A stretch of 58,058 nt of DNA. Source: Patescibacteria group bacterium. Lineage in GTDB: Bacteria; Patescibacteriota; WWE3; JAMCXX01; JBBTUG01. Location of the stretch: NCBI GenBank assembly GCA_038063895.1, contig JBBTUG010000004.1, positions 1 through 58,058 on the forward strand, given 5' to 3'. Under the pieces are notes generated by a model. That model had not been told where the DNA came from, did no database searches, and saw only the letters and a program-made list of their open reading frames with translations. Below, piece after piece: positions 6,348 to 33,606 of this stretch; the stretch's first letter is position 1, and each line of letters starts with the position of its first letter. The position numbers were made by a program, and so were the translations under genes.

Positions 6348-6828
6348 ATATTTTTCCCATTTTGGCTACCTGATCCTGACGGCGGCATTTTTGCTGACGC
6401 CTTTTTTGGCCATTCACAACCTGTTGGGTTTTTCCGGAGAAAAAGATTTGCCCACCGGAGCAGTTCTTTCGGCTGAAAGTACGGCTTTTAACCGCTACCT
6501 GCGTTATTTGAACAGTCAGCCGAGGACCGGATCGCGGGAGACCGTTTCGGTCTATGTTTTTCCGGGACAGACAACTTCCTACCGGAATATCTATCAGGTG
6601 AAAAATACAAAGTCCGGTCCTATGCAGTTACGGTTGACCGACGTACGGATTAACTCTTTGGCGGAACCGGATATTAACGCCGTATTCTATTTTGCCGATA
6701 AGCCGGTAACCGGTCCGGTGACTTTATCCGCCGGAGAGCGCCTGCCGGTCAGTTTGCAAGTCACCGCCTCTGTCGCGCTTAAGGAACCGTCCCCGGTGGA
6801 GATCTCCTTTACCCTGGAAATGGAATGA
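6322..6828 (+). CDS. Membrane-anchored/secreted hypothetical protein
   Basis: N-terminal TM helix followed by a beta-rich soluble part. It overlaps its neighbours on both sides, consistent with operon coupling. Confidence 0.35.
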   Translation: MRQPMKPFKYFSHFGYLILTAAFLLTPFLAIHNLLGFSGEKDLPTGAVLSAESTAFNRYLRYLNSQPRTGSRETVSVYVFPGQTTSYRNIYQVKNTKSGPMQLRLTDVRINSLAEPDINAVFYFADKPVTGPVTLSAGERLPVSLQVTASVALKEPSPVEISFTLEME

Positions 6829-7406
6829 CACCCCTTTTGGCGAAAGTTATTTCCCGGCTGTTTGACCTGTACACCTGGTCGGTTGTTATCAACGTTTTGG
6901 CTCTGACCCGGACCGACCTCTCCCGTCCGCAATTTATTTTCTTGGGGCTGTCTTTGTTCCTGCTGGAAGTTATCTTTCCAGTCGCCTTATTTATTATTTT
7001 TCTGAAAAAGAAGCTGATTACCGATATTGATCTTACCCAGCGGCGCGAACGGCCTCTGTATTTTTCCTGTCTTTTTCTTCTAGCAGCTTTAGGCAGTTTG
7101 TTGGGATACGTCGTCGGAACAAGACCGTTTTTTCTTATTCAGCTGGTGGAGTTGTTTCTGATCGGGGGGATGACTCTTATTACTTTATTCTGGAAAATTA
7201 GCGGACACATGATGATTAACGCGGCGGGAATCTTCTTCCTCAACTACTTCTTCGGGTGGCAATACTGGTGGTTGTTTTTCCTGCTTCTGCCCGTCGGCTG
7301 GTCGCGGTGGTACCTGCACAAGCACGACCTTTGGCAGCTACTGGCCGGGGCGCTTTTGGGACTCTCAATTCCGACAGTAGTTCTCAAGGTTTTCGGTTTA
7401 TTCTAG
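6825..7406 (+). CDS. PAP2-like membrane phosphatase (tentative)
   Basis: Polytopic membrane protein. The C-terminal SRWYLHKHDLWQLLAGALLG resembles PAP2 motif C3 (SRxxxxxHxxxD), but imperfectly. Confidence 0.4.
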   Translation: MTPLLAKVISRLFDLYTWSVVINVLALTRTDLSRPQFIFLGLSLFLLEVIFPVALFIIFLKKKLITDIDLTQRRERPLYFSCLFLLAALGSLLGYVVGTRPFFLIQLVELFLIGGMTLITLFWKISGHMMINAAGIFFLNYFFGWQYWWLFFLLLPVGWSRWYLHKHDLWQLLAGALLGLSIPTVVLKVFGLF

Positions 7407-7506
7407 TTACCGGAATGCCGTTTATCAAACTAGCTGCATCACAATTCCTACGCGACCGCTGATGATTTGTGATGTGGAGAAAACGACATCCGTTATTCCT
7501 TTGCCG

Positions 7507-8430
7507 CTAGTCACCGAGTCCATAAATAATCGTCAGAACGGCGAAACCCCAAAGTGCGACGCTGACTAAAAGCGGCTTATCGGAAAAAATAACTCTCTCC
7601 GGCGATTCGCCTTCTTTCTTTTCGTAAATGATGTAGAGATAACGGGCAACGCTATAAATCGCTAACAGGATAGTCAACATCATCCACTTCGGCCGGGCCA
7701 GGCTGGGGGGCAGAATCGTCGCGAGAAAGGGCACATAAGCTTTGGAAGAGACCTGGAAGGTAAAAAGAGCATAAGTAATAATGGCAAAAGACGCGGACAT
7801 CGAGATCATTGAATCGAGCAGCGTATCCGGATAATGTTTTAAAGTTTCCCGGGTCTCATTCGGTAAGTGATAAGCCGCCAAAAGCGTCCGCTCACTCCGC
7901 CGTTTACCAAAAGCCAGAAGCAGGGAAACGCCGATGGTCGTCAAAACCAGCCAGGAGGAGAGGGAGACATGAATTGCCAGAGAACCGGCATAAAAGCGGA
8001 GGATAAATGCGGTGGCGACGGTTAACGCATCCACGATAATCATCCGCTTGAGAAAAAAGCTGTAGCTGATTTCCAGGATCACAAAAGTCAGGCTGATGAT
8101 GAAAAAATAGCGGTCGAGTGAAAAAGACCAAGACAGCCCCAGCACTAAAAGAATTAGGGCGGTGAGGCGGGCCGTATTTACACCGACTTTCCCGGCCGCC
8201 AGCGGGCGCATTTTTTTGAACGGGTGGAGGCGGTCCTTGTTAATATCAACCAGATCATTGATCAGGTACATCGAGGAGGATAAACAGCAGAATATTATAA
8301 AAGCCTTGGTGGCCTGGGTAAATTGCTGGTAATCGAAAAGCGATCCCCAAAAAAAGAGGGCGCCGTAGAGGCTGACATTCTTTAACCACTGACGAGGCCG
8401 AAGGGCTTTAAACAGATAAAAGAGTGTCAC
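7507..8430 (-). CDS. UbiA-family prenyltransferase, decaprenyl-phosphate phosphoribosyltransferase-like
   Basis: The N-terminus ALRPRQWLKNVSLYGALFF and the aspartate-rich motif NDLVDINKDRLHPFKKMRPLAAG are characteristic of the polyprenyl-phosphate 5-phosphoribosyltransferase branch of UbiA. About 8 TM helices. Confidence 0.75.
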   Translation of the reverse strand: MTLFYLFKALRPRQWLKNVSLYGALFFWGSLFDYQQFTQATKAFIIFCCLSSSMYLINDLVDINKDRLHPFKKMRPLAAGKVGVNTARLTALILLVLGLSWSFSLDRYFFIISLTFVILEISYSFFLKRMIIVDALTVATAFILRFYAGSLAIHVSLSSWLVLTTIGVSLLLAFGKRRSERTLLAAYHLPNETRETLKHYPDTLLDSMISMSASFAIITYALFTFQVSSKAYVPFLATILPPSLARPKWMMLTILLAIYSVARYLYIIYEKKEGESPERVIFSDKPLLVSVALWGFAVLTIIYGLGD

Positions 8431-8461: not shown

Positions 8462-9934
8462 TTAATTTTTCTTCCGCAGTTTAATCAGCGAAGAAAACTG
8501 GGTTTCGTCCAGATTAGCCAGAATAAGAATTAAGGCTGCGACCGTGCCGCCGGTTAAAAGTGAAAGCGGTAAATCTTTTTCGGAGGAATAAAGAGCGATA
8601 AGTCCGAGAAAACCGGTGATTACCCAGTAAAAAACCGCCACCCGCCGTTGACTCCAGCCCAAATCCAGCAGCTTGTGGTGGAGATGGCCCCTGTCGCCCC
8701 AGACCGGGGACTGACCGCGCCGGATCCGCCGGACCACCGCGAAAATAGCATCCAGCGTCGGGACGCTGAGGATCAGAATTGTCACGCTTATTTTGGCGAT
8801 CGACAGGATGGCGAGGGCGGCTAACACCAACCCGAAGGCCGTGGCGCCGAAACCGTAAAGCATTTTTGAGGGGTGCCAGGTAAAGGGCAGCGTTCCCAGG
8901 ATAGCTCCGGCGGCAATAAAAGAAAAAATGACGGCATAAAGTTGGTCAGGGTTTCCCAGGATTATTCTTTCACCTAGTATTCCGATGACGATCGCCGTGA
9001 TAAAAACGATTCCGGGAAACTGGCCGTCAACCCCATTGCTCCAGGAAAGCATATTCATTAAGGCCGCCCCCCAAAGAACAGTCAGTAAATCCCCGGGGAG
9101 ATAAAAATGACGTAAGCCGAAGAACTGAAATTTAAGATCAGTCCAGTCGAGAGGGATAATGCCGTCGAGAGGATTGCCGATGTAGGTGATGTGGACCCCC
9201 GCTAAAACGACGATGGTAAAAGCGGCGATTTGGGAGAGAAGCCGAATATAAGGATTTAAATCGTACTTATCATCAATTAGACCAACCACCGTCATCAGGC
9301 CTCCGGCCAACAGGACCCCGTAAAAGGTGCTTGACGGCGGGACAAACAGAAACGTAGTTAAAATTAGAGCCAAAAAAGCCGGTAAGTTACCTGCCCGCGG
9401 AGTCGGCTTTGAAAGCAGCATTCCGGGATGATTGTGCGTTTCCGGATTATCAATCAGTCCCCATTTCTTGGCCAAAGAAAGAGTCGGGAAAGTAAGAAAA
9501 AAGGAAAAAATGAAAGCCAGGATGAGGGGAAAAATGAATCTTTCCTCCAGCAGGGCAGGAACGGTACCGGGAGCGGAGACGAGGCTGACAACCCGGTAAA
9601 GAGAAAAGCCTAACAGCAGCGTGATCATCAGGTTGAGTAGTGTAAAAAGTTGCGCCAGAATCTTTTCCCGCCGGCGGAGGAACATTTCCGTTAGGAGCAG
9701 GTTGGTAAAGAAGGATAATAATAACAGGAGCGGGAGGACCGCCAGGATGGAGCGATCCGCAAGTTGGGCAACTCCCCAAGGCAGGGTGTACCACAACGGG
9801 ACGAGTGGCGGCAGGTATCCGAATTTTAAGATCAGAAAAGCGGTGCCAGCGATAAAAACCGTTCCGGCAATGAGGAATTGCAACGCCAGAAACCTTTCTT
9901 TAAAAATATAGACCTCTTTACTCAGAATCAGCAT
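8462..9934 (-). CDS. Glycosyltransferase family 4 (MraY/WecA-like polyprenyl-phosphate sugar-1-phosphate transferase) with N-terminal membrane extension
   Basis: Motifs are GLIDDKYDLNP and NMLSWSNGVDGQFPG, with a HHKLLDLGW C-terminal region. About 150 extra N-terminal residues form added TM helices. Confidence 0.75.
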   Translation of the reverse strand: MLILSKEVYIFKERFLALQFLIAGTVFIAGTAFLILKFGYLPPLVPLWYTLPWGVAQLADRSILAVLPLLLLLSFFTNLLLTEMFLRRREKILAQLFTLLNLMITLLLGFSLYRVVSLVSAPGTVPALLEERFIFPLILAFIFSFFLTFPTLSLAKKWGLIDNPETHNHPGMLLSKPTPRAGNLPAFLALILTTFLFVPPSSTFYGVLLAGGLMTVVGLIDDKYDLNPYIRLLSQIAAFTIVVLAGVHITYIGNPLDGIIPLDWTDLKFQFFGLRHFYLPGDLLTVLWGAALMNMLSWSNGVDGQFPGIVFITAIVIGILGERIILGNPDQLYAVIFSFIAAGAILGTLPFTWHPSKMLYGFGATAFGLVLAALAILSIAKISVTILILSVPTLDAIFAVVRRIRRGQSPVWGDRGHLHHKLLDLGWSQRRVAVFYWVITGFLGLIALYSSEKDLPLSLLTGGTVAALILILANLDETQFSSLIKLRKKN

Positions 9935-22977: not shown

Positions 22978-23475
22978 CTACCTAACCCACAACTGCAAAT
23001 CGGATTCTTTGTAATCGGCGTTACTATTCCCGGTATCGCAGCCGTACGTCGGTTTTTGCCGGACGGGCCCCAAACGGCTTTGGCAGAAAACAACCCAGCG
23101 CCCGTCGGTGGTAGTTCCTGTCCCGGATTCACCCGGGTCACCTTTTTCTCCTTTTTCCCCTTGCGGACCGATTGGCCCGGCCGGGCAGGTATTACTACAA
23201 TTCGCAGCGGCGGTTGTACCGCTGGCGGTGGCAGTAGGATTAGAAAAAAAGAGCTTATCCGTTATACTCTGGTCGCCAATTCCCCGTCCACCGGCCGGGG
23301 AGGGGGTGGGAATTGAATATACAGGAAGTGGGTTGGATAGGGTTTGGTCGGAGATACTTTTTAAATCCCGAAGATCAAAATACAAAAAAATGATAACTAC
23401 TGATTGGACAGCGAGGAACAGAACGAGAACAGTTACCGGAGCATATTTCTTTAGGGCAGAGAGAAAATCCTCCAT
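22978..23475 (-). CDS. Membrane-anchored collagen-like (G-X-Y) repeat protein
   Basis: N-terminal TM helix, a Pro/Thr-rich linker, then an uninterrupted GPIGPQGEKGEKGDPGESG Gly-X-Y tract and a Cys-containing C-terminal module. Confidence 0.5.
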   Translation of the reverse strand: MEDFLSALKKYAPVTVLVLFLAVQSVVIIFLYFDLRDLKSISDQTLSNPLPVYSIPTPSPAGGRGIGDQSITDKLFFSNPTATASGTTAAANCSNTCPAGPIGPQGEKGEKGDPGESGTGTTTDGRWVVFCQSRLGPVRQKPTYGCDTGNSNADYKESDLQLWVR

Positions 23476-23597
23476 ACAAAATTATTCTACCACGCTCTTG
23501 CCAACTCAACCCGAGAGACCCGAGTTGTCTTTTGTTATGGGGTGTGATAGGTTATAGGCTGATACGGCTCAAAGAAAGCCTACTAAGGAGGGACTTT

Positions 23598-25103
23598 ATG
23601 GATCTTACCTTTTTAACCCCTCTTGTCCGAGAAGTGGCGGCAAGAGTTATGAGAGAAGAGGGGGCTCCCTTGTTTTTTGATCGTCAGATTGATCAGACCC
23701 CGCTTATTAATCGTGCCTTTTTATGCGCGTACGACGCTGTCTTTAGGTCGGTGTCTTATGAATCGGGGCTGATGGAACGTGTCGCGGCGGAAGTTCTTAC
23801 CCTTCTAGCCAAAACGGTCGGGGCTTTGTCGTGGGGAATACGGCCTTTTGTGGCTGCCGATTCGTTGCTCCTGCTTCCAGGCGAGCAGCTCGGTTTGGAA
23901 ATCGGAAGTACCTACGGGTTGTTCGGTTTCACCGCGGATGGTGCGGCGATGATCCCGGGTGGTTTTATGGACCGGCGCCAAGACCCAATGGGCGATACCA
24001 TTCGGGAGCTGATTGAAGAGGTGCTTCCTGGTAATAATCCCGGCGATATCGTCCCGCGGCTGGTGGTGGCGGAATCAAGTGCTTACGCCCGAGCCCTTTC
24101 CCGTTATCGTCAGAGTGGGTTACAGGTTATCTCCGCGCTGGTGTTATGCACACCGCGACTGGGCGCTACAATAAAGCCTCGGGCCGCTTCGGATAACACC
24201 GGATGGAAATGGCTTCATTTGTTTGAACCCAATGGAACTCCGGACTTTAGCACGATGAGTGGTTATGTTTGGCGTGATGATCACTTCGCGGTTATTGCCC
24301 GTCTGCTCCGCCAGGCCGGTGCTTTCAGTCAACGCCAAAGATTTCAAAGGAACGGTGGTTCCGAGATCCTACGATACTTGGAATCCCTTCCGGAAATCCC
24401 GTTGGTTGTGACTGGCTATCGACCAACTCCGGAAGCGGAAGGGAAGTATACCTTTCCCCGGACTTACAACGTTCAGCTCGCCGAAAAATTGGTAGCGGCG
24501 TTGTTGGCTGAATATCACGTGGGAGCGGCGAAGGCTAATAAAGTCGCCGAAGACTTGGTTGGGGAATTAGTAGCTATAGGGTTCCTTCCGTACTTTGACG
24601 GCCCAGACCCAACGGTGGACGGGGTTGTCGTCGGTTCGGGTGCCAACGCTAATAAGATTCTGCTGTTGCGGGATGACCAGGGGAAGTATTTTCTCCCGGG
24701 AGCAGTAGTGCGCCACGGGGAAACGGTCTTGGCAGCGTTACAGAGAGGACTCTGGGCGAAGGCAAAGATGGATGCGGCTCCCTTGCATTTTGCCGGTCTC
24801 GCGCCCGAATGGCCAACCATCGATGGTCAGGCGGTTTTGCGCGATCCGCGCGGAACTAGTGCCGACTTTCTCTTTATATTGCTGGCCACTTCTCCAGCGG
24901 ATACCACGGCGGATCACCTTTGGCTTCGATTGTGGGATGATCATGGTTCTCCCAACCCTGACCTGGTGAAGCTAAAATTCCGTTATCACCACGGTGAGGT
25001 TTTGGATAAAGTGATGAGGGATATGGTTGCGCAAATGATCTACTCACCGCTTGGTTCGGAGACCTTGCAGGAAGCCGTTTCGCGACGAGGGCTAATCATT
25101 TAG
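23598..25103 (+). CDS. Tandem Nudix-like domain protein (function unknown)
   Basis: I chose the ATG preceded by aaggaggg. Box 1, IPGGFMDRRQDPMGDTIRELIEEV, retains REUxEE. Box 2, LPGAVVRHGETVLAALQRGLWAKAKM, retains GET but has lost the REUxEE glutamates. Confidence 0.45.
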   Translation: MDLTFLTPLVREVAARVMREEGAPLFFDRQIDQTPLINRAFLCAYDAVFRSVSYESGLMERVAAEVLTLLAKTVGALSWGIRPFVAADSLLLLPGEQLGLEIGSTYGLFGFTADGAAMIPGGFMDRRQDPMGDTIRELIEEVLPGNNPGDIVPRLVVAESSAYARALSRYRQSGLQVISALVLCTPRLGATIKPRAASDNTGWKWLHLFEPNGTPDFSTMSGYVWRDDHFAVIARLLRQAGAFSQRQRFQRNGGSEILRYLESLPEIPLVVTGYRPTPEAEGKYTFPRTYNVQLAEKLVAALLAEYHVGAAKANKVAEDLVGELVAIGFLPYFDGPDPTVDGVVVGSGANANKILLLRDDQGKYFLPGAVVRHGETVLAALQRGLWAKAKMDAAPLHFAGLAPEWPTIDGQAVLRDPRGTSADFLFILLATSPADTTADHLWLRLWDDHGSPNPDLVKLKFRYHHGEVLDKVMRDMVAQMIYSPLGSETLQEAVSRRGLII

Positions 25104-25112
25104 TTGACTAGC

Positions 25113-25150
25113 AACGGACTGTTGAGATTTTCAACAGTCCGTTTCATTTT
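25113..25150 (+). terminator. Rho-independent terminator
   Basis: Perfect 13-bp stem aacggactgttga / tcaacagtccgtt with a 5-nt loop, followed by tcatttt. Confidence 0.8.
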
Positions 25151-25154
25151 ATAA

Positions 25155-25188
25155 TTGACAAGAGTCAAATCCCGTGTTAGTTAGTGTA
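25155..25188 (+). promoter_or_regulatory. Candidate operator/promoter box pair upstream of nadD-pncB (shared with the nrtR upstream region)
   Basis: TTGACAAGAG (25155-25164) and TTAGTTAGTGTA (25177-25188) are both repeated exactly at 27738-27747 and 27750-27761. TTGAC-aaga-GTCAA is also an inverted repeat here. Confidence 0.45.
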
Positions 25189-25228
25189 TTAAATACAATT
25201 TTAGGTCATTTAATTTGGCCCTATAGCG

Positions 25229-25257
25229 TTGACCACCCATGCTTTTTATGCTACAAT
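25229..25257 (+). promoter_or_regulatory. Sigma70-like promoter for nadD-pncB
   Basis: TTGACC, 17 nt spacer, TACAAT, with a TGc extended -10. Confidence 0.5.
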
Positions 25258-25303
25258 CCAACCACCTGCCTCGCCTTTATTGGCGCGGTTTTTTTGTTAG
25301 GAG

Positions 25304-25954
25304 ATGGAGGAGGGTATGAACTCAAAAAGCAGGACGAGGCTTACGATCGCTTTAGCCGGTTCAGCGGTGGATCCGTTTCACTTAGGACACCTGGCCTTAC
25401 TGGCTGCACTAATGTCGATGGATTTCGACATTATTTATTGGGTAGTGTCCGGGGCTCGGAAAGGTAAGATACCGAGAGTCGGTCCGGACGACCGGGTGAC
25501 GATGACGCTTCTGGCCATTCCGAAAAAGTGGTTGCTTAGTCTTTGTCCGCGGTTGAAGATTGTCTTCATCGACGCCTACGGCCGCAACACACCGACTATT
25601 ACCTGGCTGCGGCGATTGCATCGTTGGTACCCGGCCGCGGAAGTTACCCTGGTTACCGGCGCCGATTCGGTTTGCGGTGGACCGGACGATCTCAAATACT
25701 GGGATGCCGGGGCTCAGATCTACGAAAAGTGGAAGGTTTTGGTTTTTCCGCGCGTCCACTTTGCTGGAGTAAGAAAGCTCCGGAAAATTTTGAAAAACCG
25801 CCCGAATTTCTCGGTGGTCGACACGGTTTTACCGGACGTGGCCAGCCGGGAAATTTGTACGCGGATTGGTTTAGGGAAGAAACGCTGGACGCATTTGGTT
25901 CCACGTCCTGTGGCACTTTTTATTAAAAGAAACCACCTGTACGGAAACAGGTGA
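25304..25954 (+). CDS. nadD: Nicotinate-nucleotide adenylyltransferase (NadD-like)
   Basis: GSAVDPFHLGH ((H/T)xGH motif), RVTMTLLAI, TLVTGADS, and DVASREICTRI (an ISSTxIR-like motif). It is colinear with NadD. An alternative start at 25316 has better SD spacing. Confidence 0.75.
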   Translation: MEEGMNSKSRTRLTIALAGSAVDPFHLGHLALLAALMSMDFDIIYWVVSGARKGKIPRVGPDDRVTMTLLAIPKKWLLSLCPRLKIVFIDAYGRNTPTITWLRRLHRWYPAAEVTLVTGADSVCGGPDDLKYWDAGAQIYEKWKVLVFPRVHFAGVRKLRKILKNRPNFSVVDTVLPDVASREICTRIGLGKKRWTHLVPRPVALFIKRNHLYGNR

Positions 25955-25990
25955 GCATTCAACAAAGGTCAAAATTGACCGAGGAGGGGT

Positions 25991-27631
25991 ATGAACAACT
26001 TTGCCGCGCATTTTTTTCGTGGTGACCGCTACCATTATGTGATGGCGGATTGGGCCTTGTGGCTCTGGGAAGTTCTTGGTTTGCAGAGAAATAATCGAGA
26101 TACTTGGGTACGTTTCTATGCCACGGAGCGCAAAGTTCCTTACGCCGTCGCGCTCGGACACGAGCAACTCTTTCAATCCCTAATAGGGCATCCGCTTGAC
26201 TACCCGCGTCAAAGGTTTCTTGCTGATGACAAAGCAGCTTTAACGCGAGTGGCGAGTTTGCTTCGTCAGCCCTACGCAGGTGAAGTTCGGATGCTGCCGC
26301 CCGCGACACTTTATTTCGCCAAACAGCCCATTCTGGATGTGCATGGTGACTTCGCACAAGTGCAAATGGGCGAGGTTCCGATTGAGCACGTTCTTGATCT
26401 TTTCGGAACTTTCGCTTTCTACGCTTTGGACATCAAGCTGGCCAGCGCCGCCGCCGATCAACTGTGTGGGTTCGACCTAGCGGATGCGGTTGACCTGGAT
26501 CAGAAACGGGCATTAACCGGTCGTCCTTCTCTGTCGAACTTTGCTTTGCGGCGACTCGGAGACCCTTTCCGTTCCCTCGTCGCGTCGGAAGTGTCCCAAG
26601 TTTGTGGCTGGGACGATACCAGTGACGTCGAAGCCGGTTTTGAGACGGATACCCCGACTATGGGTACACACGCCCATTACGGCGTCCAACTCGCTAAAGG
26701 GTTGATGCAATATCTACTGAGGGCTGGAAAGGTGGATGGCCTTTTTGACGAAAAGGAAAGGCCGAAGCATTTCCAGCGCTGGATGTTTGAAACTTGGCTG
26801 GACAAGCACCCTAACGGTACAACTCTTTTGGTTGATACCCTTGATCTGAAGTTAGGGTTACGGCATGCCGTTGAAGCGGCGAACAGTTCGCCAGCTCGCA
26901 GAAAGGCGTTGAAGTTTGTTCGTGTGGACTCTCGTTATCCGCCGGCAGCCGCTCTTTACGCCCGCCGGTTCTTGGACGCGAACGGTTTCAGTGACGTGGG
27001 CGTAATTGTCACCGGTGACCTGGACGCGGCGATGCTACGAGTGATGACCCGATTGGGTTTGGTTTTCGGTGGCCGAATTACCTATCTGATGAACGGGGTG
27101 GGGATCGGCACGAAGTACGGTGTTGAATTCAACCACGTGGCCGGAGCCATCTTCAAGATGACGGAATGTTTTGGTATCCCAACCGGAAAACTTTCCGACA
27201 GCAAATCAACCTTTCCCGGTTGGTTGCAAGTCCGTCGTTTCTCTAACGCGATGGGGATAATCACGCGTCAGGATACTGTTTTGCAAGATGAGCCAGTTCG
27301 CTTACTCCCCGGCGAATACTACGCGGTTGATCTTCTAGAGCCGTTCTACGGTGGAAGCGGAGTGGGGGTGGAAATGAAGAACCCGCTAACCATCAATGAG
27401 AAGCGTACCTTCCTGTGGGAACAGATTTTCCGGCTCCAATTGCCCATTGCGGAGTTTGCCAGAGAGCGAGTTGGCATCAGCCCGGCATTGAAGGATTTGA
27501 TGGCTACCCTTGCCAATGACGCGATTGATCTAAATGAGACCGGCGTCGTTTTCCCGGTGGAAGAATACGATGAGTGTTGGCTCGAAATTCGTGCGGCTGA
27601 AGAAAGGCTGGGAATTTCGACCAAGTCTTGA
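25991..27631 (+). CDS. pncB: Nicotinate phosphoribosyltransferase (PncB/NAPRT family)
   Basis: N-terminal GDRYHYVMA (D.Y..tM), MGTHAHYGVQ (phospho-His motif GThAH), LVDTLD, VRVDS, VTGDLD, GVGIGT, and KLSDSKSTFPGWLQVRR. These motifs are colinear with NAPRTases. Confidence 0.8.
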   Translation: MNNFAAHFFRGDRYHYVMADWALWLWEVLGLQRNNRDTWVRFYATERKVPYAVALGHEQLFQSLIGHPLDYPRQRFLADDKAALTRVASLLRQPYAGEVRMLPPATLYFAKQPILDVHGDFAQVQMGEVPIEHVLDLFGTFAFYALDIKLASAAADQLCGFDLADAVDLDQKRALTGRPSLSNFALRRLGDPFRSLVASEVSQVCGWDDTSDVEAGFETDTPTMGTHAHYGVQLAKGLMQYLLRAGKVDGLFDEKERPKHFQRWMFETWLDKHPNGTTLLVDTLDLKLGLRHAVEAANSSPARRKALKFVRVDSRYPPAAALYARRFLDANGFSDVGVIVTGDLDAAMLRVMTRLGLVFGGRITYLMNGVGIGTKYGVEFNHVAGAIFKMTECFGIPTGKLSDSKSTFPGWLQVRRFSNAMGIITRQDTVLQDEPVRLLPGEYYAVDLLEPFYGGSGVGVEMKNPLTINEKRTFLWEQIFRLQLPIAEFARERVGISPALKDLMATLANDAIDLNETGVVFPVEEYDECWLEIRAAEERLGISTKS

Positions 27632-27645
27632 TTACGCAACCTGCT

Positions 27646-27679
27646 CATACACTTGCATTCAGGTGTATGGGCAGTTTTT
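27646..27679 (+). terminator. Possible terminator after pncB
   Basis: CATACAC / GTGTATG 7-bp stem with a 10-nt loop, followed by ggcagttttt. Confidence 0.45.
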
Positions 27680-27737
27680 AAGAGCGGTTCACTTTCAGGG
27701 AAGGTGGAAAGTTCTTAGAAACCGGTTAAAAAAACTC

Positions 27738-27761
27738 TTGACAAGAGGATTAGTTAGTGTA
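27738..27761 (+). promoter_or_regulatory. Candidate operator box pair upstream of nrtR
   Basis: TTGACAAGAG and TTAGTTAGTGTA are identical to the boxes at 25155-25188. Here they are spaced 2 nt apart instead of 12 nt, a difference of one helical turn. Confidence 0.45.
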
Positions 27762-27777
27762 AATATTAAACAGTAAG

Positions 27778-27786
27778 TGTTATAGT
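27778..27786 (+). promoter_or_regulatory. Extended -10 (TGTTATAGT) placed 7 nt before the nrtR ATG (leaderless-type promoter)
   Basis: A TGn-TATAGT hexamer ends 7 nt upstream of the ATG at 27794. No Shine-Dalgarno sequence lies in between. Confidence 0.45.
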
Positions 27787-27793
27787 TACACGT

Positions 27794-28480
27794 ATGAAAA
27801 AAACGGGTGCCAAACAATTTACGGAGATTCGTGGTCCGGCTCTAGCCGTGGACGTTGTCGCTTTTACCGTCAAGGACGGTGTTTTCCAGGTACTTCTGCT
27901 GAAAGCGAAGACTGCGCCGGCCACCAATAAATGGGTTTTGCCTGGTGTGTTCGTGGGCCTTACGGAAACGCTAGATACAGCGGCTAAGCGGGCACTCCAA
28001 ACTAAAGCCAATATTGATATTAATTACCTAGAACAGCTTTATACCTTCGGTGAGGTTGGTCGCGATGATCGCGGGCGGGTGGTGACCTCCGGCCACTATG
28101 CCCTGGTCGATTATAAAAAATTCGACTTAAGGACTCCCGCGTCCTACGCCGAGATCGGGTGGTTTCCGGTCGATAAACTCCCGGTTACCGGCTATGACCA
28201 TAAGGAGATTATTAAGGCCGCCGTCACGCGGATCCGCAACAAACTGCAGTATTCCAACGTTGCGGTCCACCTTCTGCCGCCGGTCTTTACTTTGACGCAA
28301 CTTCAAAGGGTTTATGAGGCGGTTTTGGCCAGACCTTTGGATAAGCGTAATTTTCGTCGGAAGGTTCTAAGTTTAGGAGTGATAAGGGTCGCCAACGGAA
28401 TCGAGGAAGCAGCGGCGCACCGACCAGCCAGATTATTTAGATTTGTCACGAAGAAATACCAGGAAATCGAGCTGGTTTAG
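27794..28480 (+). CDS. nrtR: NrtR-family Nudix-related transcriptional regulator
   Basis: The N-terminal Nudix fold has a degenerate box (LPGVFVGLTETLDTAAKRALQTKANI). The C-terminal winged-helix domain carries the NrtR-typical LDKRNFRRKVLSLGVI. Confidence 0.75.
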   Translation: MKKTGAKQFTEIRGPALAVDVVAFTVKDGVFQVLLLKAKTAPATNKWVLPGVFVGLTETLDTAAKRALQTKANIDINYLEQLYTFGEVGRDDRGRVVTSGHYALVDYKKFDLRTPASYAEIGWFPVDKLPVTGYDHKEIIKAAVTRIRNKLQYSNVAVHLLPPVFTLTQLQRVYEAVLARPLDKRNFRRKVLSLGVIRVANGIEEAAAHRPARLFRFVTKKYQEIELV

Positions 28481-28547
28481 GGTTTGCATTATCCTATATT
28501 AGTTGTACACTGGCAAAGCTCTAATAAAGTTAAAATAAAGAAGGAGT

Positions 28548-28595
28548 CAAGACCTCTGCCGCAATTATTTGCCGTAGAGGTCTTGGTTTCTTTTT
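28548..28595 (+). terminator. Rho-independent terminator after nrtR
   Basis: caagacctct / agaggtcttg 10-bp stem followed by gtttcttttt. Confidence 0.7.
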
Positions 28596-28713
28596 ATGGA
28601 AACCGGGAAGTCCTTTGACAACTGAAGTTACGGTTATTTAGCGTTTTTCGTTTGCCCTTATTGCCCCGTCTTGGGGCATTAAGCTTGTAGTTATCTTATC
28701 AGGAAGGAGGGTT

Positions 28714-29526
28714 ATGGTTAAAAAGCTTCCCTTTGTGGTTAGGGATGGCAGCGTCCCGGGAGCGGATCACGTGGCGAAAGCACGTAATTGCCAAGACGGC
28801 AAAGGCTGGCGGCGGATCATAGTCAACGACAAAGAGTACCTTGTTGCTGCTTGTTCGGACGGCTGTGGATCTGGTCTCCACACGGAGGTCATCGCCAGTT
28901 TACTCCCGTTGTATGTGATCGGTCAGATCGGTCACCTCCTAACCTTTGAGACACCGGTCCTTAGTGTCCCGGCGGCTCTCTACGCCCACGTTTTGGCGTA
29001 TCTCGAGTTTCAGTGGAAGAACATTCCCTTTAGTTCGAGAAAGGAGCTCGTTGATTTCATTAAGAACTACCTCCTCGCCACCCTCTACGGTTTCATAATT
29101 GGCGATGAGGACTCGGTGCTTTTTCACGCGGGACGAGGATACACCGTGGTTAACGGTGTTGTGGACGCAATAGAGCACCTGCAAGGTGATCCTTACCCCG
29201 CTTACCATTTGGTTCCGCGCTCTGACTGGCAGGAGCCAAGTATGGTGTTGCCCCGGAGTTTTACGGTGGTTTCGCTGAAAACAGCGAACATCTTTAACTT
29301 AGGGGTAGCCACTGATGGGGCGATGGGAACTTTGCCCGGTGGAAAGACTGGGTTATTGCTTCCCCGCCTTTTGGTCGATGCATTTACTGGTGAGTCAGGA
29401 GTTCAGCGCTGGCTGAATCTCATCAATGGGCCGCGCAATCCTCATCCCGAGGACGGCACCTTTGCCGATGACACGACGGTGATCCTAGCCGAGCGGATCG
29501 AGGAGGCGGTTGATGACAACAGCTAA
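28714..29526 (+). CDS. PP2C-like Ser/Thr protein phosphatase (PP2C_2 type, PphC/YegK-like)
   Basis: Strong SD (ggaaggaggg). The motifs GADHVAKARNCQDGKGW and VAACSDGCGSGLHTEV, plus a later GVATDGA, match the G.sH...pcQD / aDGaGS / DG signature of bacterial PP2C_2 phosphatases. Confidence 0.6.
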   Translation: MVKKLPFVVRDGSVPGADHVAKARNCQDGKGWRRIIVNDKEYLVAACSDGCGSGLHTEVIASLLPLYVIGQIGHLLTFETPVLSVPAALYAHVLAYLEFQWKNIPFSSRKELVDFIKNYLLATLYGFIIGDEDSVLFHAGRGYTVVNGVVDAIEHLQGDPYPAYHLVPRSDWQEPSMVLPRSFTVVSLKTANIFNLGVATDGAMGTLPGGKTGLLLPRLLVDAFTGESGVQRWLNLINGPRNPHPEDGTFADDTTVILAERIEEAVDDNS

Positions 29527-31540
29527 TCCTGCGCCACTTACCAGAGTTGTCGTTAACAATCATCTGGTGACTGTAACTGCTAAGGATGTCCTCGGTAACC
29601 CCGGAGGACAAGGAACGGTCTATAAGGCGATGGTAATGCCCCCGGATCACGTCGGCACCTCGGCAACAACCTACAGGGTCCGCGTTCCACAAGGACGTAC
29701 TGCCGGTAAATTTAAGGCCCTGAAGATTTATCATGTCCCGCCGGGGAACCGAATGCAAAAGAAGTTACCCGAGTTGGTTCGGGTGCTTACCGGCTTACCA
29801 GGGGAATACGCAGACGAATGTGTGTCGCCGGAAGATTTGGCTTACGATCCCGCGGACGAAACCGTGGTCGTGGGTTTTGCTATGCGTCTGCTCGAATCCG
29901 GTTTCAATGTTTGGGAAGCTTTGTTCAATCGCAAGTTCCGCGAAGCGAGCGACGTGACAACGCGGGACGTGCTTGACCTGTCGATTCGACTGGCCAAGTT
30001 GCTCGATGTCTTACACCAAGCGCCAACGCCGGTTCGGATCGGTGACCTTAATCCCCGGAATGAGCTCTATAAAACACTGCGGGGGTTAATGCTGGCGTTG
30101 ATCGATATGGATTCCGTCCAGATTGGTAACTTCCCCTGCGAAGTGGCGACGGAACGTTTCCTGAATCCCAGGCTTTTTGGTCAAGATCTCAGCAGTCGCC
30201 CCCTCTTCACCGACGAGGACGACTTCTACTCTTTCTGGGCGCTGCTGGTAAACGCGGTGCTCCTAGCCCACCCGTACGGTGGCTCCTACCGAGCTATCCC
30301 AAAGATACCGGGGCGGGCAACCGCACGGGTATGGTTACTCGACAAACGGGTGGTCTTTCCGGTAAATGCGTACCCGCCGACTCTTCTGACAGACGAACTT
30401 TTGCATGTTCTGGAGGAAGTGTTTGCGAAGGGGCATGTCGTCAGGCCGGAGGTCGGAATGCTCGAAGCCTATCGCGACTCTCTTCTTGGCTGTCCGACTT
30501 GCGGGCTTTGGTATCCGGCTCATTTAAAAGAGTGCCCGGGTTGTCAGGCCATCAATCAGGCCGTTCGGCGCCTCGGCGCGGCTCTGAAGGAGATTATGGC
30601 GACAGAATTGTTGACAGTGGGAGGTCCCATTCTTTTCTACCGGGTGATTGGGACGACCATCTATGCTATTTCGCGCGAGAGGGGCCAGGCAGTGCTCTAC
30701 ATCAAAGAATCACTGGCAACTGCGCGACGAATAACTCTCTTTCAAGCGGAAAAAGAAACCCGCTACGAAGTTTTTGATCACTACCTAGCTGTCTGCAAGG
30801 ATAGCTACGCGGAGCTGGCGGAGATAGCAATTTACGATATCTCCGGCAGCAGTCCGGTATTCGTGACGAAGACGGCTACCGAGAACTTTGCCGGCCATCG
30901 GGCTCTGTTCCGTGGTTCGAGAGACTACCTTTATCGAGCCTACGGGGGGGTTATTTACCGGGGCAGCATCCAGTTCGGGAATGTTTTAGTTGAGTCGGCA
31001 GTCGGGCAAGCGACGCCGCACCAAACCTGGTTTGATGCGGATGCGACTTCGGCCACCGCCTGCGGCTTCTCCCGCATCTTCCGTCAGTATTTCTGGTTTC
31101 TGATTCGCGATCGGGGTCAAGACACTCTTAACCTCACGGAATTGGATGACGGGGAATCACTGCTTGATCAGTGCGTGCGGTTTTCACAATCCTCTCTGCT
31201 GATTATGCGGCGGACGGAGATTCGCGGAGTTGAGAATATGCGGTTGGATGTTGTCGCCAGGGCGACAGCTAAGGTGACGAGTTCCCGCCGAGTGAAATTA
31301 TCTGACTCGCCACACCTCGAAAACCTCCATGCCGCTTCCTACGGTCGGGGGATAGTATTGGTTCCGACCGACGACGATGGGATAGTAGCTGAGGACGTTG
31401 CCACCGGAAGCCAGCGGATATTTGCGGAAGCAAAACCGTTTGTGGATGCTGGCAGTGTAATCAACTTGTTCGAAGATGGTATCTTGGTCCGTTTTGGCCC
31501 CAAGGCCATCAAACTTGTTTTAGGGCAAAAGAATCCCTAA
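29510..31540 (+). CDS. Ser/Thr protein kinase-like protein (YegI / TerY-P type) with Zn-ribbon and beta-rich C-terminal domain
   Basis: Gly-rich loop (GNPGGQGTVYKA), Lys (FKALKIYH), catalytic loop (IGDLNPRNELY), a DFG-equivalent (LIDMDSVQ), and CPTCGLWYPAHLKECPGCQ. About 330 C-terminal residues have a repetitive beta-strand character. It overlaps the phosphatase gene by 17 nt. Confidence 0.6.
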   Translation: MMTTANPAPLTRVVVNNHLVTVTAKDVLGNPGGQGTVYKAMVMPPDHVGTSATTYRVRVPQGRTAGKFKALKIYHVPPGNRMQKKLPELVRVLTGLPGEYADECVSPEDLAYDPADETVVVGFAMRLLESGFNVWEALFNRKFREASDVTTRDVLDLSIRLAKLLDVLHQAPTPVRIGDLNPRNELYKTLRGLMLALIDMDSVQIGNFPCEVATERFLNPRLFGQDLSSRPLFTDEDDFYSFWALLVNAVLLAHPYGGSYRAIPKIPGRATARVWLLDKRVVFPVNAYPPTLLTDELLHVLEEVFAKGHVVRPEVGMLEAYRDSLLGCPTCGLWYPAHLKECPGCQAINQAVRRLGAALKEIMATELLTVGGPILFYRVIGTTIYAISRERGQAVLYIKESLATARRITLFQAEKETRYEVFDHYLAVCKDSYAELAEIAIYDISGSSPVFVTKTATENFAGHRALFRGSRDYLYRAYGGVIYRGSIQFGNVLVESAVGQATPHQTWFDADATSATACGFSRIFRQYFWFLIRDRGQDTLNLTELDDGESLLDQCVRFSQSSLLIMRRTEIRGVENMRLDVVARATAKVTSSRRVKLSDSPHLENLHAASYGRGIVLVPTDDDGIVAEDVATGSQRIFAEAKPFVDAGSVINLFEDGILVRFGPKAIKLVLGQKNP

Positions 31541-31561
31541 GAAAGCAAAGGAGGAAAGGTT

Positions 31562-32563
31562 ATGCGTGCAACAACTGCAGCAACGACGCGGCCGGATTAT
31601 TTACCGCCCGCGAGCTTTTATGATGATTCGATGGTCCAGACGAAAACCAAGGTCGACGCCACGATGGCGTTGGACACTGCCTGGCAATGTTATCGTGGTA
31701 TCTGGCAGCCGGCGGCTGTGGACACTCACAAGATTGCCTATGTCCACATCGATGATCAGTACTGCTTTATGGATGATGGCGAGCTCCCTGTCCCGGGGTC
31801 CTACGGTGACATCATGGCCGAGACCCATCTCACCTATCGTTTAGGTGGAAAAGTCAAGACACATGTCTTGACCGGGGACCAACATCCTCCACTCGCAATC
31901 TACTTTCCCGAGTGGTGGTTTGCTGGAAAGGACTGGACTGACGATTACGGTCACAAATATCGTCGAGGGGAGCGCCCCTTGGACAACACCTTGATTCCTC
32001 TCGAAGCGATCGATGACGGGCGTTGGGTAGCGAGATTTGAGACAGCCTGGTCTCACAGCTACCCCGCGAGGTTAAAAGCGGACGGGCGCCAACCACTCAT
32101 GGTTTGGGCGCATCACGGGCACGAGGGTACCCACAGTGCCAATATCGTCGCGGTGTTGATGGAGGCGATCTTGGTTTGCAGTTACGGGCGGATGACCAAG
32201 CCGATCTTTATCGGGAAAGGACGGTCTTCAGTCTCGGAACATTTTAGTCCCCTGGAGTACGAAGTGCCCATTCCCGGCGTTCCACAGCTAAACGAGCGTC
32301 AGTTGCAGGTTCTGGAGGAGCATGATGAGATTTGGATTTCCGGTCGTGCTTTATCTCACTGCGAGATGGCGTATGTGCGGACGCTCGTCAAATATTTCGG
32401 CGTCAAGGATCCCGGGGTGTTGAAGCGGGTAAAGATCCTGATGGATACCACCCACTCCGTCGTGGTTCCGGGCATTGATTTTCACGGAATAGCGCTACAG
32501 CAGTTCGAGGACTGGCGCAAACAATATGGCATCGAGTTGCTGAACAGTACGGATCTTGATTGA
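31562..32563 (+). CDS. pncA: Nicotinamidase / isochorismatase-family cysteine hydrolase (PncA-like, with insertion)
   Basis: Colinear with PncA: AYVHIDDQYCFMDDGELPVPG (catalytic Asp), LTGDQHPP (D-x-H metal site), VWAHHGHEGTHSANI, IGKGRSSVSEHFSPL (Lys; cf. KG..vDsYSaF), and IWISGRALSHCEMAYV (catalytic Cys). SD is aaaggagg. Confidence 0.65.
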   Translation: MRATTAATTRPDYLPPASFYDDSMVQTKTKVDATMALDTAWQCYRGIWQPAAVDTHKIAYVHIDDQYCFMDDGELPVPGSYGDIMAETHLTYRLGGKVKTHVLTGDQHPPLAIYFPEWWFAGKDWTDDYGHKYRRGERPLDNTLIPLEAIDDGRWVARFETAWSHSYPARLKADGRQPLMVWAHHGHEGTHSANIVAVLMEAILVCSYGRMTKPIFIGKGRSSVSEHFSPLEYEVPIPGVPQLNERQLQVLEEHDEIWISGRALSHCEMAYVRTLVKYFGVKDPGVLKRVKILMDTTHSVVVPGIDFHGIALQQFEDWRKQYGIELLNSTDLD

Positions 32564-32648
32564 TGTTTCTCTCGGAGGGTGTGGTTCGACTCTATGCAAT
32601 ACGGATGCGGACCACACCCGCCCAAATACGAAAGGAGGGCTTTTTATT

Positions 32649-33539
32649 ATGGGAGCAAGTAACAAGAGTGTCGCGTCGGGGAAACTTACGATGGCTGATG
32701 CCAAGGTCGCTTTATCCAAAGCCGTGACAGAGCATCATGCCTTAAGCCAGGATATGGCAGATCAGGTTATTGCCAATCTGGACAACTGTGGCATCGACGA
32801 ACTTGGGTTGTCGCCAGCAACGCTTGGTGGCTCCATCGCCACGATCCTGGTCTTTGTGGCCGACGGAAGTGGCTCGGTGGAACAGGTGCAGGACATTATC
32901 CTGGCCCAGTTGAACGAGATGCTGGATGCGTTGAAGGGTGCAAAGGGTTCGGAAGTGGTGACGGTGACGCTGATTCGTTTCAACCATCAGGTCGTCGTGG
33001 TCTTTTCGAACAAACCGCTAGACAGTATTCAGCAACTGACAACGGCGGAATACTTTGCTTCGGGTGGTACGGCGTTTTTTGACGCCTGCGCGATGGGTAT
33101 CTCCAATGCCCTTGCATTCGAGGAGGTCCTGATCCAGAGTGGCTACACCACCGAAGTGCTCTTCCTCGCGGCGACTGATGGGGCTGACCGTGACTCGCGG
33201 ACTGCGACGGCGCAGACTGTCAGCGAGATGTTTGCCGAAATCCGCAAGCGGAAACGGACCTGGTATGCCGTTATGATCGGTCTTCACACCTGGGAGCAGG
33301 TGGATTTCAAACAGGTTGGTCATAACTGCGGTTTTGAACAGGTGGAAGAAGTGACACTGCCGCAAATTCCAGCGGACGCTTCGGCTGCTGACGCGAAACG
33401 TATTCGTTACGAATGTGAACACAAGCTCCGCCAATTGTTCAGCCGCGTGTCAAAGTCAATCATTCGCCAGTCCCAAGCGCACATTTCGGGTGGGAATGTT
33501 GGCAACACTGTCGGTGGGGGCTTCTTGGATGTGACGTAG
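32649..33539 (+). CDS. von Willebrand factor A (vWA) domain protein, TerY/YegL-like
   Basis: I chose the start at the ATG after aaaggaggg. The MIDAS site is complete: VFVADGSGS (DxSxS), GGTAFFDA (Thr), LAATDGADRDS (Asp). Confidence 0.75.
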   Translation: MGASNKSVASGKLTMADAKVALSKAVTEHHALSQDMADQVIANLDNCGIDELGLSPATLGGSIATILVFVADGSGSVEQVQDIILAQLNEMLDALKGAKGSEVVTVTLIRFNHQVVVVFSNKPLDSIQQLTTAEYFASGGTAFFDACAMGISNALAFEEVLIQSGYTTEVLFLAATDGADRDSRTATAQTVSEMFAEIRKRKRTWYAVMIGLHTWEQVDFKQVGHNCGFEQVEEVTLPQIPADASAADAKRIRYECEHKLRQLFSRVSKSIIRQSQAHISGGNVGNTVGGGFLDVT

Positions 33540-33563: not shown

Positions 33564-33606
33564 AAGGTGCATACTGTTTTCGGACAGTGTGCACCTTTTC
33601 TTTTTA
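33564..33606 (+). terminator. Rho-independent terminator closing the island
   Basis: aaggtgcatactgt / acagtgtgcacctt 14-bp stem (one G-U pair) followed by ttctttttat. Confidence 0.8.

Follow-up and report, generated by a model that had tools for sequence, protein, structure and literature searches.

The stretch of DNA examined here, 58,058 nucleotides of a Patescibacteria group bacterium (GenBank assembly GCA_038063895.1, contig JBBTUG010000004.1) and in the following referred to in its full length as the window, harbours an operon of four genes on the + strand, which encode a PP2C-type phosphatase, a Ser/Thr kinase, a long nicotinamidase of the PncA type and a protein with a von Willebrand factor A (vWA) domain. 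Together these genes, which we will call the tetrad, appear to constitute a TerY-P-like switch with an integral nicotinamidase that is embedded in NrtR/NAD regulons, while the clustering of NrtR with pncA, pncB and nadD is in itself classical. The four genes recur together in dozens of other loci, their proteins have diverged in concert, and in many of these loci sequence boxes typical of the repressor NrtR precede the operon. We propose that the tetrad is a phosphorylation-gated nicotinamidase module, which would control the Preiss-Handler recycling of NAD+ and would be tied to an ADP-ribose/NrtR circuit, a reading to which we assign a probability of about 0.5.

The tetrad forms the second half of an island of eight consecutive + strand open reading frames (ORFs) at 23598-33539, here numbered g1 to g8, which an earlier note on this DNA had delimited and which is confirmed. 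Its first gene, g5 (28714-29526), encodes the phosphatase; the match of g5 itself to PP2C_2 is weak (E = 0.0043), its relatives match PF13672, and conservation across 84 homologues extends to D28, D49-G50, D201-G202 and D252-D253, which include the metal-binding Asp residues. The second gene, g6 (29510-31540), encodes a Ser/Thr kinase followed by a Cys4 Zn-ribbon and a C-terminal beta-propeller. Taken alone, g6 has no match in Pfam and nothing useful in NCBIfam or PDB. In Foldseek comparisons of its AlphaFold2 model (predicted local distance difference test, pLDDT, 86) the kinase domain resembles TLK2, WNK3 and AAK1, i.e. it is similar to eukaryotic-type protein kinases, and the C-terminal 310 residues resemble the seven-bladed propellers of the clathrin N-terminal domain and Lis1; this domain lacks a sequence-profile match in Pfam or PDB, and the propeller is seen by fold search only. 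The kinase residues K72, D179, N184 and D199 and the ribbon cysteines C328, C331, C342 and C345, located between the kinase and propeller domains, are conserved in 91-94 homologues. The kinase-ribbon-propeller family is large and uncharacterised: at E <= 1e-30 it comprises no fewer than 1,318 cluster representatives (50% identity), and the 150 highest-ranking ones are all full length.

The third gene, g7 (31562-32563), is assigned to the nicotinamidases by family profiles and catalytic residues. By itself it matches neither Pfam (Isochorismatase) nor NCBIfam nor PDB, and PF00857 is matched by only two of eight g7 relatives. Two family profiles built without any canonical PncA (A3 and A8) retrieve from the PDB nothing but nicotinamidases (1ilw, 5e-10; 2h0r, 1.3e-9, the latter with a profile restricted to tetrad members). 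Asp64, Lys219, Cys267, Asp106 and His108 align with canonical PncA, and the triad D64, K219 and C267 as well as D106, H108 and H185 show no variation among the tetrad-linked homologues (71-76 of 77, the exceptions being truncated ORFs). Like the canonical PncA/Pnc1 enzymes (PDB 1ilw, 2h0r, 2wt9, 3pl1), g7 thus possesses an Asp-Lys-Cys triad and an Asp/His metal site, and it shares the DxQxDF and W-x-x-H motifs. It differs from them in length (~330 amino acids (aa) versus ~180-235 aa) and belongs to a subfamily of ~330-360 aa, whose members are extended at the N-terminus and contain, relative to canonical PncA, a large insertion of ~60 residues. Close relatives of g7 are only four among 5.8 billion clustered proteins, and the AlphaFold2 model obtained from the five-sequence alignment is too poor for structural use (pLDDT 49). 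The last gene, g8 (32556-33539), encodes the vWA protein (PF00092, 1.6e-5; phrog_7371, 1e-18). Its metal-ion-dependent adhesion site (MIDAS), described as complete in the earlier note, is indeed so, and 65-66 homologues keep its residues D103-x-S105-x-S107, T172 and D208. The Ser-rich C-terminal tail (33450-33475, residues 299-307) retains S299, S301, S306 and Q307 in more than 95% of homologues, and the three serines are candidate phospho-acceptors of the kinase. The active sites of all four proteins are under purifying selection.

The linkage of the four genes was surveyed in loci retrieved via the kinase alone, a choice that keeps the sample free of bias towards PncA; six of them come from IMG/VR, and 80 are the best of 400 from JGI metagenomes. 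Genes were located by iterated hidden Markov models (HMMs) on six-frame ORFs and counted over the 38 loci in which the kinase is flanked on either side by 3 kb or more. PP2C is present in 36 and vWA in 35 of these 38 loci, a PncA-like gene lies within 4 kb of the kinase in 34, and the tetrad is complete in 32. The commonest order is PP2C-kinase-PncA-vWA, as in the window, and six loci show the circular permutation PncA-vWA-PP2C-kinase; the classical order vWA-PP2C-kinase was found only in loci L020 and L021, both of which are devoid of PncA. The contigs of the four close g7 relatives share the gene order, which in L001 (49% identity) reads NrtR-PP2C-kinase-PncA-vWA. Two loci carry a ~405-aa protein without Pfam match directly after the kinase (L067, 11720-12937; L079, 7510-8733), which may be an alternative output module. 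Long PncA proteins ~27-32% identical to g7 also occur in L004-L009 (Firmicutes metagenome-assembled genomes (MAGs) and Paenibacillus naphthalenovorans), where they stand alone in ordinary housekeeping contexts, for example beside polA and fpg in L004; as candidate carriers of the triad they were rejected, since no triad genes occur at their loci.

The proteins of the tetrad have also diverged together. In the 49 loci with a complete tetrad, the matrices of pairwise identity for the four proteins are correlated with Mantel r = 0.80-0.90 (kinase-PncA 0.87, kinase-vWA 0.90, kinase-PP2C 0.89), and none of 200 permutations reached the observed correlation. The accessory genes follow the kinase more loosely, with r = 0.64 for NrtR and 0.44 for PncB. 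Median identities of the tetrad proteins across loci are just 30-40%, and a correlated divergence at this level implies that the four genes have long been inherited together. The 10-kb island of eight genes, which the earlier note had regarded as the unit, therefore gives way to a smaller one: the real unit is the PP2C-kinase-PncA-vWA core, with NrtR, PncB, NadD and NadE as looser accessories.

These accessories are nevertheless frequent companions of the core. A further NAD or ADP-ribose gene lies within 10 kb in 25 of the 38 kinase-retrieved loci (PncB in 16, NrtR in 13, NadE in 12, NadD in 6, ADP-ribosylglycohydrolase in 6 and Macro in 2), which, together with the PncA-like gene in 34 loci, answers in the affirmative whether the NAD genes and the phospho-signalling genes of the island are co-conserved. 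The commonest accessory, PncB, uses nicotinate, the predicted product of g7. According to the NrtR literature, the operator of this repressor is a 21-bp palindrome with a GT-N7-AC core, its ligand is ADP-ribose, and regulons with pncA, pncB and nadD are an established precedent (PMC2330246). The related loci contain a palindrome of 21 bp, wTAGTGT-N7-ACACTAw, which fits this architecture. A scan of 1.22 Mb of related loci, allowing at most one mismatch to AGTGT-N7-ACACT, yielded 94 such boxes versus ~35 in shuffled sequences, and 45 of the 94 are situated no more than 400 bp upstream of PP2C, in stretches that account for ~2.4% of the nucleotides scanned. A box precedes a PP2C-first operon in 30 of the 74 loci, including the shared spacers of divergent nrtR<>PP2C pairs, so that the tetrad operon is a predicted NrtR target in many lineages. 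That the island represents a regulated NAD module, as the earlier note had supposed, is thus supported in the relatives by the linkage of NAD genes and NrtR to the tetrad, but in the window itself the boxes precede only nadD-pncB and nrtR.

The first of the window boxes, TTAGTGTATTAAATACAATTT (25181-25201), follows a promoter-like TTGACA (25155-25160) upstream of nadD-pncB (feature 25155-25201, + strand). A second TTGACA at 27738 is followed by tandem boxes at 27754-27774 (weak) and 27774-27794 (TAAGTGTTATAGTTACACGTA), which together form the putative promoter of nrtR (27738-27794, + strand), and the window contains just two copies of the 12-mer TTAGTTAGTGTA, one before nadD-pncB and one before nrtR. 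The tandem boxes share their spacing and layout with those at 975-1015 of L001. There, however, it is the interval between nrtR and PP2C that holds them, while their distance from TTGACA equals that in the window, which indicates that the placement of the operator has shifted between close relatives. Just past the nrtR stop codon of the window, at 28481-28520, the sequence TATATTAGTTGTACACTGG (in the syntenic locus L012 TATAAGAGTGGTACACTG) resembles a collapsed pair of NrtR half-sites and may be a relic of the operators found at this place in L001. The leader of the tetrad operon (28619-28713, + strand) contains the -35-like element TTGACAACTGAAG, a small GC hairpin GCCCCGTCTTGGGGC and a ribosome-binding site. 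The element TTGACAACTGAAG is kept in L001 (1050-1090), where the GC hairpin reads CCCCGTTTGGGG, and in L012 (~9130-9190). The leader, which has no Rfam match, may act as a promoter with a leader structure.

Intrinsic terminators divide the island into four transcription units, namely g1, g2-g3, g4 and g5-g8. The three terminators that had been placed at 25113, 28548 and 33564 are all present on the + strand: after g1 (25113-25143, a 14-bp stem with a T-run behind it), between nrtR and the tetrad operon (28538-28595, a strong hairpin whose 27-nt arms are 78% complementary and precede a T-run, and which is also kept in L012), and at the end of the tetrad operon (33564-33597, a 15-bp stem and a T-run). 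A fourth one, likewise strong, after g3 (27641-27674, + strand, 15-bp stem, then TTTTT), had been overlooked, and its position after pncB makes nrtR a transcription unit of its own.

The genes upstream of the tetrad hold the family assignments previously given to them, and so do those of the tetrad, mostly at family level and below the curated cut-offs of the profiles. Gene g2 (25304-25954, + strand) encodes a NadD-like nicotinate-mononucleotide adenylyltransferase (TIGR00482, 6.5e-16; 58.9 bits versus a curated cut-off of 112.45) and carries PFHLGH, comparable to the NadD motif (H/T)xGH. Gene g3 (25991-27631, + strand) encodes a divergent nicotinate phosphoribosyltransferase (NAPRTase, PncB-like), for which the homology holds at family level only: its best match, NF006696 (3e-33), scores 115 bits versus an equivalog cut-off of 503, TIGR01513 (2.5e-29) likewise remains below its cut-off, and the PDB match is 2f7f (3.5e-6). 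Profile searches could have moved the PncA-like and PncB-like proteins to other families, but g7 and g3 stay among the nicotinamidases and NAPRTases. Gene g4 (27794-28480, + strand) is a member of the Nudix-related, ADP-ribose-responsive NrtR repressors (NF050029, 1.3e-48, with 165.6 bits below the 400-bit equivalog cut-off; NrtR_WHD, 6.3e-23; NUDIX, 1.6e-7), with the Nudix-like N-terminal and winged-helix C-terminal domains that distinguish the NrtR regulators.

Gene g1 (23598-25103, + strand) stands apart. The mechanically called ORF starts with TTG at 23532, and the ATG at 23598, behind AAGGAGGG, is the likelier start. A Nudix fold spans residues 361-449 (Pfam NUDIX, 5e-5, the match covering residues 374-449) in the C-terminal half, which resembles the Nudix (effector) domain of NrtR; the N-terminal half contains a Nudix-box-like GFMDRRQDPMGDTIRELIEE (residues 144-163, with a RELIEE box), and there is a weak internal repeat, which makes the designation 'tandem Nudix-like' plausible. 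The syntenic L012 lacks g1, and no homologue occurs in the 101 loci retrieved. Together with its terminator (23598-25143), g1 is thus an insertion specific to this contig and an accessory outside the conserved module; of the Nudix enzyme that had been counted as part of the island, the fold thus holds, but not the membership. Directly upstream of the island, a 165-aa ORF on the - strand (22978-23475) is hydrophobic near its N-terminus and contains a short G-x-y run of collagen-like character (GPIGPQGEKGEKGDPGESG), and with 48% identity to its L012 counterpart it is the least conserved gene of the syntenic block.

The remainder of the window consists of housekeeping genes (MetRS, GAPDH, KsgA, SufBCDS/NifU, UvrD helicases, FemAB, RmuC), and the window is part of a cellular bacterial chromosome, in which the island shows a slight rise in G+C (0.52-0.54 versus 0.46-0.50 in the flanks). 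Rfam and tRNA scans of the window gave no match. The closest comparison is offered by L012 (GCA_041643115.1), a 160-kb contig that is syntenic on both sides, from DUF4349 to the RRM, BacA, GT2 and Suf genes. Identities between the two are 91% for kinase, 90% for PP2C, 86% for NrtR, 77% for PncA, 76% for vWA and 77% for NadD, as against 48-87% for flanking proteins (SufB 87, SufC 72, SufD 56, UvrD 63); kinase and PP2C are thus more conserved than any flanking protein, which points to purifying selection in a housekeeping setting. The slot of g3 is filled in L012 by a NAPRTase gene (6471-8126) between the 77%-identical nadD and the 86%-identical nrtR. Because this protein occupies the same slot and shows no BLASTP similarity to g3, pncB looks as if it had been swapped in place by a distant homologue.

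A different setting is found in large replicons and in an archaeon. Two published huge-phage assemblies of 485 and 595 kb carry the tetrad in the order PncA, vWA, then PP2C, kinase (L102, LR745208.1, 200000-235000; L103, LR756511.1, 108000-145000). In L102 the two pairs are separated by ~2.8 kb of ORFs without Pfam match, and the kinase is adjoined by Nudix, GmrSD_N/ParB-like and nucleoside 2-deoxyribosyltransferase-like genes. IMG/VR contigs of 194-436 kb also contain the tetrad. In an Aenigmarchaeota MAG (L104, JACQII010000016.1, 4900-21100) an island is located between exosome/L37ae and SBDS/proteasome genes, with the order sigma70-ParB-PP2C-kinase-PncA-vWA, two LSDAT genes, NAPRTase, radical SAM, NadE and Nudix; PPK2 belongs to this island as well, and its sigma70 is of the bacterial type. 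The island has the appearance of a mobile NAD module that became integrated in the chromosome of a DPANN archaeon. The tetrad module is accordingly both mobile and, in places, stably resident.

Among described systems the tetrad comes closest to the TerY-P triad, reportedly described by Anantharaman, Iyer and Aravind in 2012. This triad consists of a TerY-like vWA protein, a PP2C phosphatase and a Ser/Thr kinase with a Zn-ribbon, as given in PMC10542128 and PMC11090510. All three protein types are present in the tetrad, including a PP2C_2-type phosphatase in the same operon, a kinase whose catalytic domain is followed by a Cys4 Zn-ribbon, and a vWA protein with a full MIDAS. The tetrad differs, however, in the nicotinamidase, which is added as a co-evolving fourth core gene between kinase and vWA, in the gene order (PP2C-kinase-PncA-vWA or PncA-vWA-PP2C-kinase rather than vWA-PP2C-kinase), in the extra C-terminal beta-propeller of the kinase and in the association with NrtR and NAD genes instead of ter genes or restriction systems. 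The tetrad also matches no TerY-P model of PADLOC, assuming that PADLOC-DB holds such models.

The likeness to NrtR regulons is equally partial. Clusters such as nrtR-pncA-pncB-nadD-nadE in Clostridium acetobutylicum and nrtR-nadD<>pncA-pncB-nadE in Pseudomonas are on record (Rodionov et al. 2008, PMC2330246), and the loci studied here agree with them in the clustering of NrtR with pncA, pncB and nadD, in 21-bp GT-N7-AC operators that overlap promoters, and in that nrtR of the window appears to be autoregulated. By contrast, pncA is here part of an operon with kinase, phosphatase and vWA genes, which in many relatives is preceded by the boxes, and no such signalling genes figure among the regulon entries retrieved from that source. 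A third point of reference is the reconstitution of NAD+ by phages, for which PMC13464706 names NARP1, NARP2 and NARP3, i.e. Adps/Namat, Nampt/Nmnat and PnuC/NadR. Like these, the tetrad loci comprise gene sets that would restore NAD+ from breakdown products and are partly phage-borne. They would do so through nicotinamidase and NAPRTase, NadD and NadE (Preiss-Handler) and would possess a dedicated phospho-switch, and the window is part of a cellular chromosome. None of the NARP1, NARP2 or NARP3 enzyme families is among the Pfam and NCBIfam matches of the eight window proteins. No description of a triad linked to PncA and NrtR was found in the literature searched, in line with the suspicion of the earlier note that the arrangement had not been described, although a brief mention in the original 2012 TerY-P paper is possible; the Iyer 2022 survey of NAD-ADP-ribose systems in viruses mentions neither PP2C nor PncA.

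If the tetrad acts as a gated nicotinamidase module, its operation might be envisaged as follows. The presumed trigger is the cleavage of NAD+ by sirtuins, ADP-ribosyltransferases (ARTs) or NADases, which would release ADP-ribose and nicotinamide. ADP-ribose would relieve the repression by NrtR, in the window that of nadD-pncB and nrtR, from which transcripts might continue into the tetrad, and in many relatives directly that of the tetrad operon. The nicotinamidase would convert nicotinamide, its putative substrate, to nicotinate, which PncB and NadD would carry onward to nicotinate adenine dinucleotide; the NadE step would be encoded elsewhere in the organism of the window and is encoded beside the cassette in other loci. 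The kinase/PP2C pair would gate the activity or the assembly of the nicotinamidase, in this presumed direction of signalling, with vWA as a putative phospho-target or as a MIDAS-dependent adaptor and the kinase propeller as an input or docking domain. The entry of nicotinamide into recycling, and hence the level of nicotinamide as an inhibitor of sirtuins and ARTs, would thereby be set post-translationally. In all this, the identities of the genes, their conserved active sites and linkage, the co-divergence and the NrtR boxes are observed, and the biochemical function, be it replenishment or sensing of NAD, is a prediction.

Several observations weigh against this proposal. In the window, no NrtR box precedes g5 even at up to three mismatches, and a strong terminator parts the tetrad operon from nrtR. 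An HMM of NadE built from related loci finds no match in the window, where its absence had been noticed before. PP2C-kinase pairs without PncA and vWA occur in L064, L067 and L079. A second PncA accompanies the tetrad as a long paralogue in L001 (5974-6990, - strand) and as a short protein of canonical size in L046 (6309-6950), L047 (6518-7267), L052 (14974-15747) and L083 (14303-14929), so that a plain salvage role of the tetrad enzyme may be redundant at these loci; it may also be that the tetrad enzyme is not redundant with an ordinary PncA. Finally, carriage by huge phages and mobile elements points to a role in conflict and not in housekeeping.

Such a role leads to the explanation that comes next in probability, although we consider it somewhat doubtful: the tetrad could be a conflict system, serving anti-phage defence in cells or counter-defence in phages, with the nicotinamidase as effector. 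The phospho-switch would then sense infection or NAD+ depletion, and the nicotinamidase would rebuild NAD+ via nicotinate in a Preiss-Handler-type route; alternatively, the removal of nicotinamide would starve Nampt- or Namat-type pathways or relieve the inhibition of Sir2/ART effectors. Modules resembling TerY-P are reported as stand-alone defence and as partners of restriction systems (PMC10542128), and the reconstitution of NAD by phages is an established theme (PMC13464706). The carriers of the tetrad fit such a picture, including as they do two huge phages, IMG/VR contigs of 194-436 kb and a sigma70/ParB island in an archaeal chromosome, as do neighbours such as ADP-ribosylglycohydrolase, Macro, Nudix and LSDAT/SLOG genes and the fast turnover of accessories, among which pncB was swapped in place and g1 inserted. 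On the other hand, none of the eight window proteins matches PADLOC (PADLOC-DB v2.0.0, E <= 0.01), and 32 members of the kinase family match only the generic kinase models PD-T4-6, MkoA and Stk2, and these weakly. No NADase, TIR, SIR2 or nuclease effector lies beside the cassette in the families surveyed, and in the lineage of the window the cassette has a constant place in the chromosome, surrounded by housekeeping genes whose conservation it exceeds. Conflict and gated salvage are compatible with each other, because a role in conflict would use the same biochemistry. Both are combined in a broader proposal, to which we give rather little credence: the tetrad would be a widespread and hitherto undescribed signalling device induced through ADP-ribose and NrtR, which detects the cleavage of NAD+ and gates Preiss-Handler reconstitution, and which would serve both cells (bacteria and DPANN archaea) and huge phages in conflicts over the NAD+ pool.

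Unlikely, to a greater degree, is that the PncA-like protein is not a pathway nicotinamidase at all but serves to sense a ligand, or to hydrolyse a different amide of the pyridine or nucleotide type, with its state being read by the kinase-vWA-PP2C switch and the NAD genes being co-regulated neighbours and not a pathway fed by g7. The distinct, long subfamily with its N-terminal extension and insertion, the missing Isochorismatase match of g7 alone and the canonical short PncA at L046, L047, L052 and L083 would suit this idea. It sits uneasily with the invariant Asp-Lys-Cys triad and metal ligands, with significant PDB matches that are all nicotinamidases, with a commonest accessory (PncB) that uses the predicted product nicotinate, and with the stand-alone Firmicutes relatives of the long subfamily in ordinary contexts. 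As for a fortuitous adjacency of an NrtR-pncA-pncB-nadD salvage cluster and an unrelated TerY-P-type triad, the four transcription units of the window and the restriction of its NrtR boxes to nadD and nrtR might suggest it, but the same gene order is found in dozens of loci down to ~22% kinase identity, with PncA between kinase and vWA and with proteins that co-diverge. Given this recurrence in dozens of independent loci and the co-divergence of the tetrad proteins, chance adjacency is hardly conceivable, and we reject it.

The depletion and reconstitution of NAD+ are central to the conflict between phages and their hosts, and for many organisms with reduced genomes NAD salvage is the sole source of NAD. 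Against this background, the survey defines a large family in which a nicotinamidase is hard-wired to a kinase-phosphatase-vWA switch, often under the ADP-ribose sensor NrtR. The system is small, with four genes and clear active sites, and its predictions are directly testable. If the proposed mechanism of phosphorylation-gated salvage holds, it would represent the first post-translational switch on bacterial NAD salvage, assign a function to a TerY-P-like module and provide a candidate Preiss-Handler-type route for the restoration of NAD+ in huge phages. Should the broader proposal of a device shared by cells and phages prove true, the tetrad would add a fourth, regulated route of NAD+ reconstitution, and a bacterial NAD salvage enzyme under Ser/Thr phospho-control would be on record for the first time.

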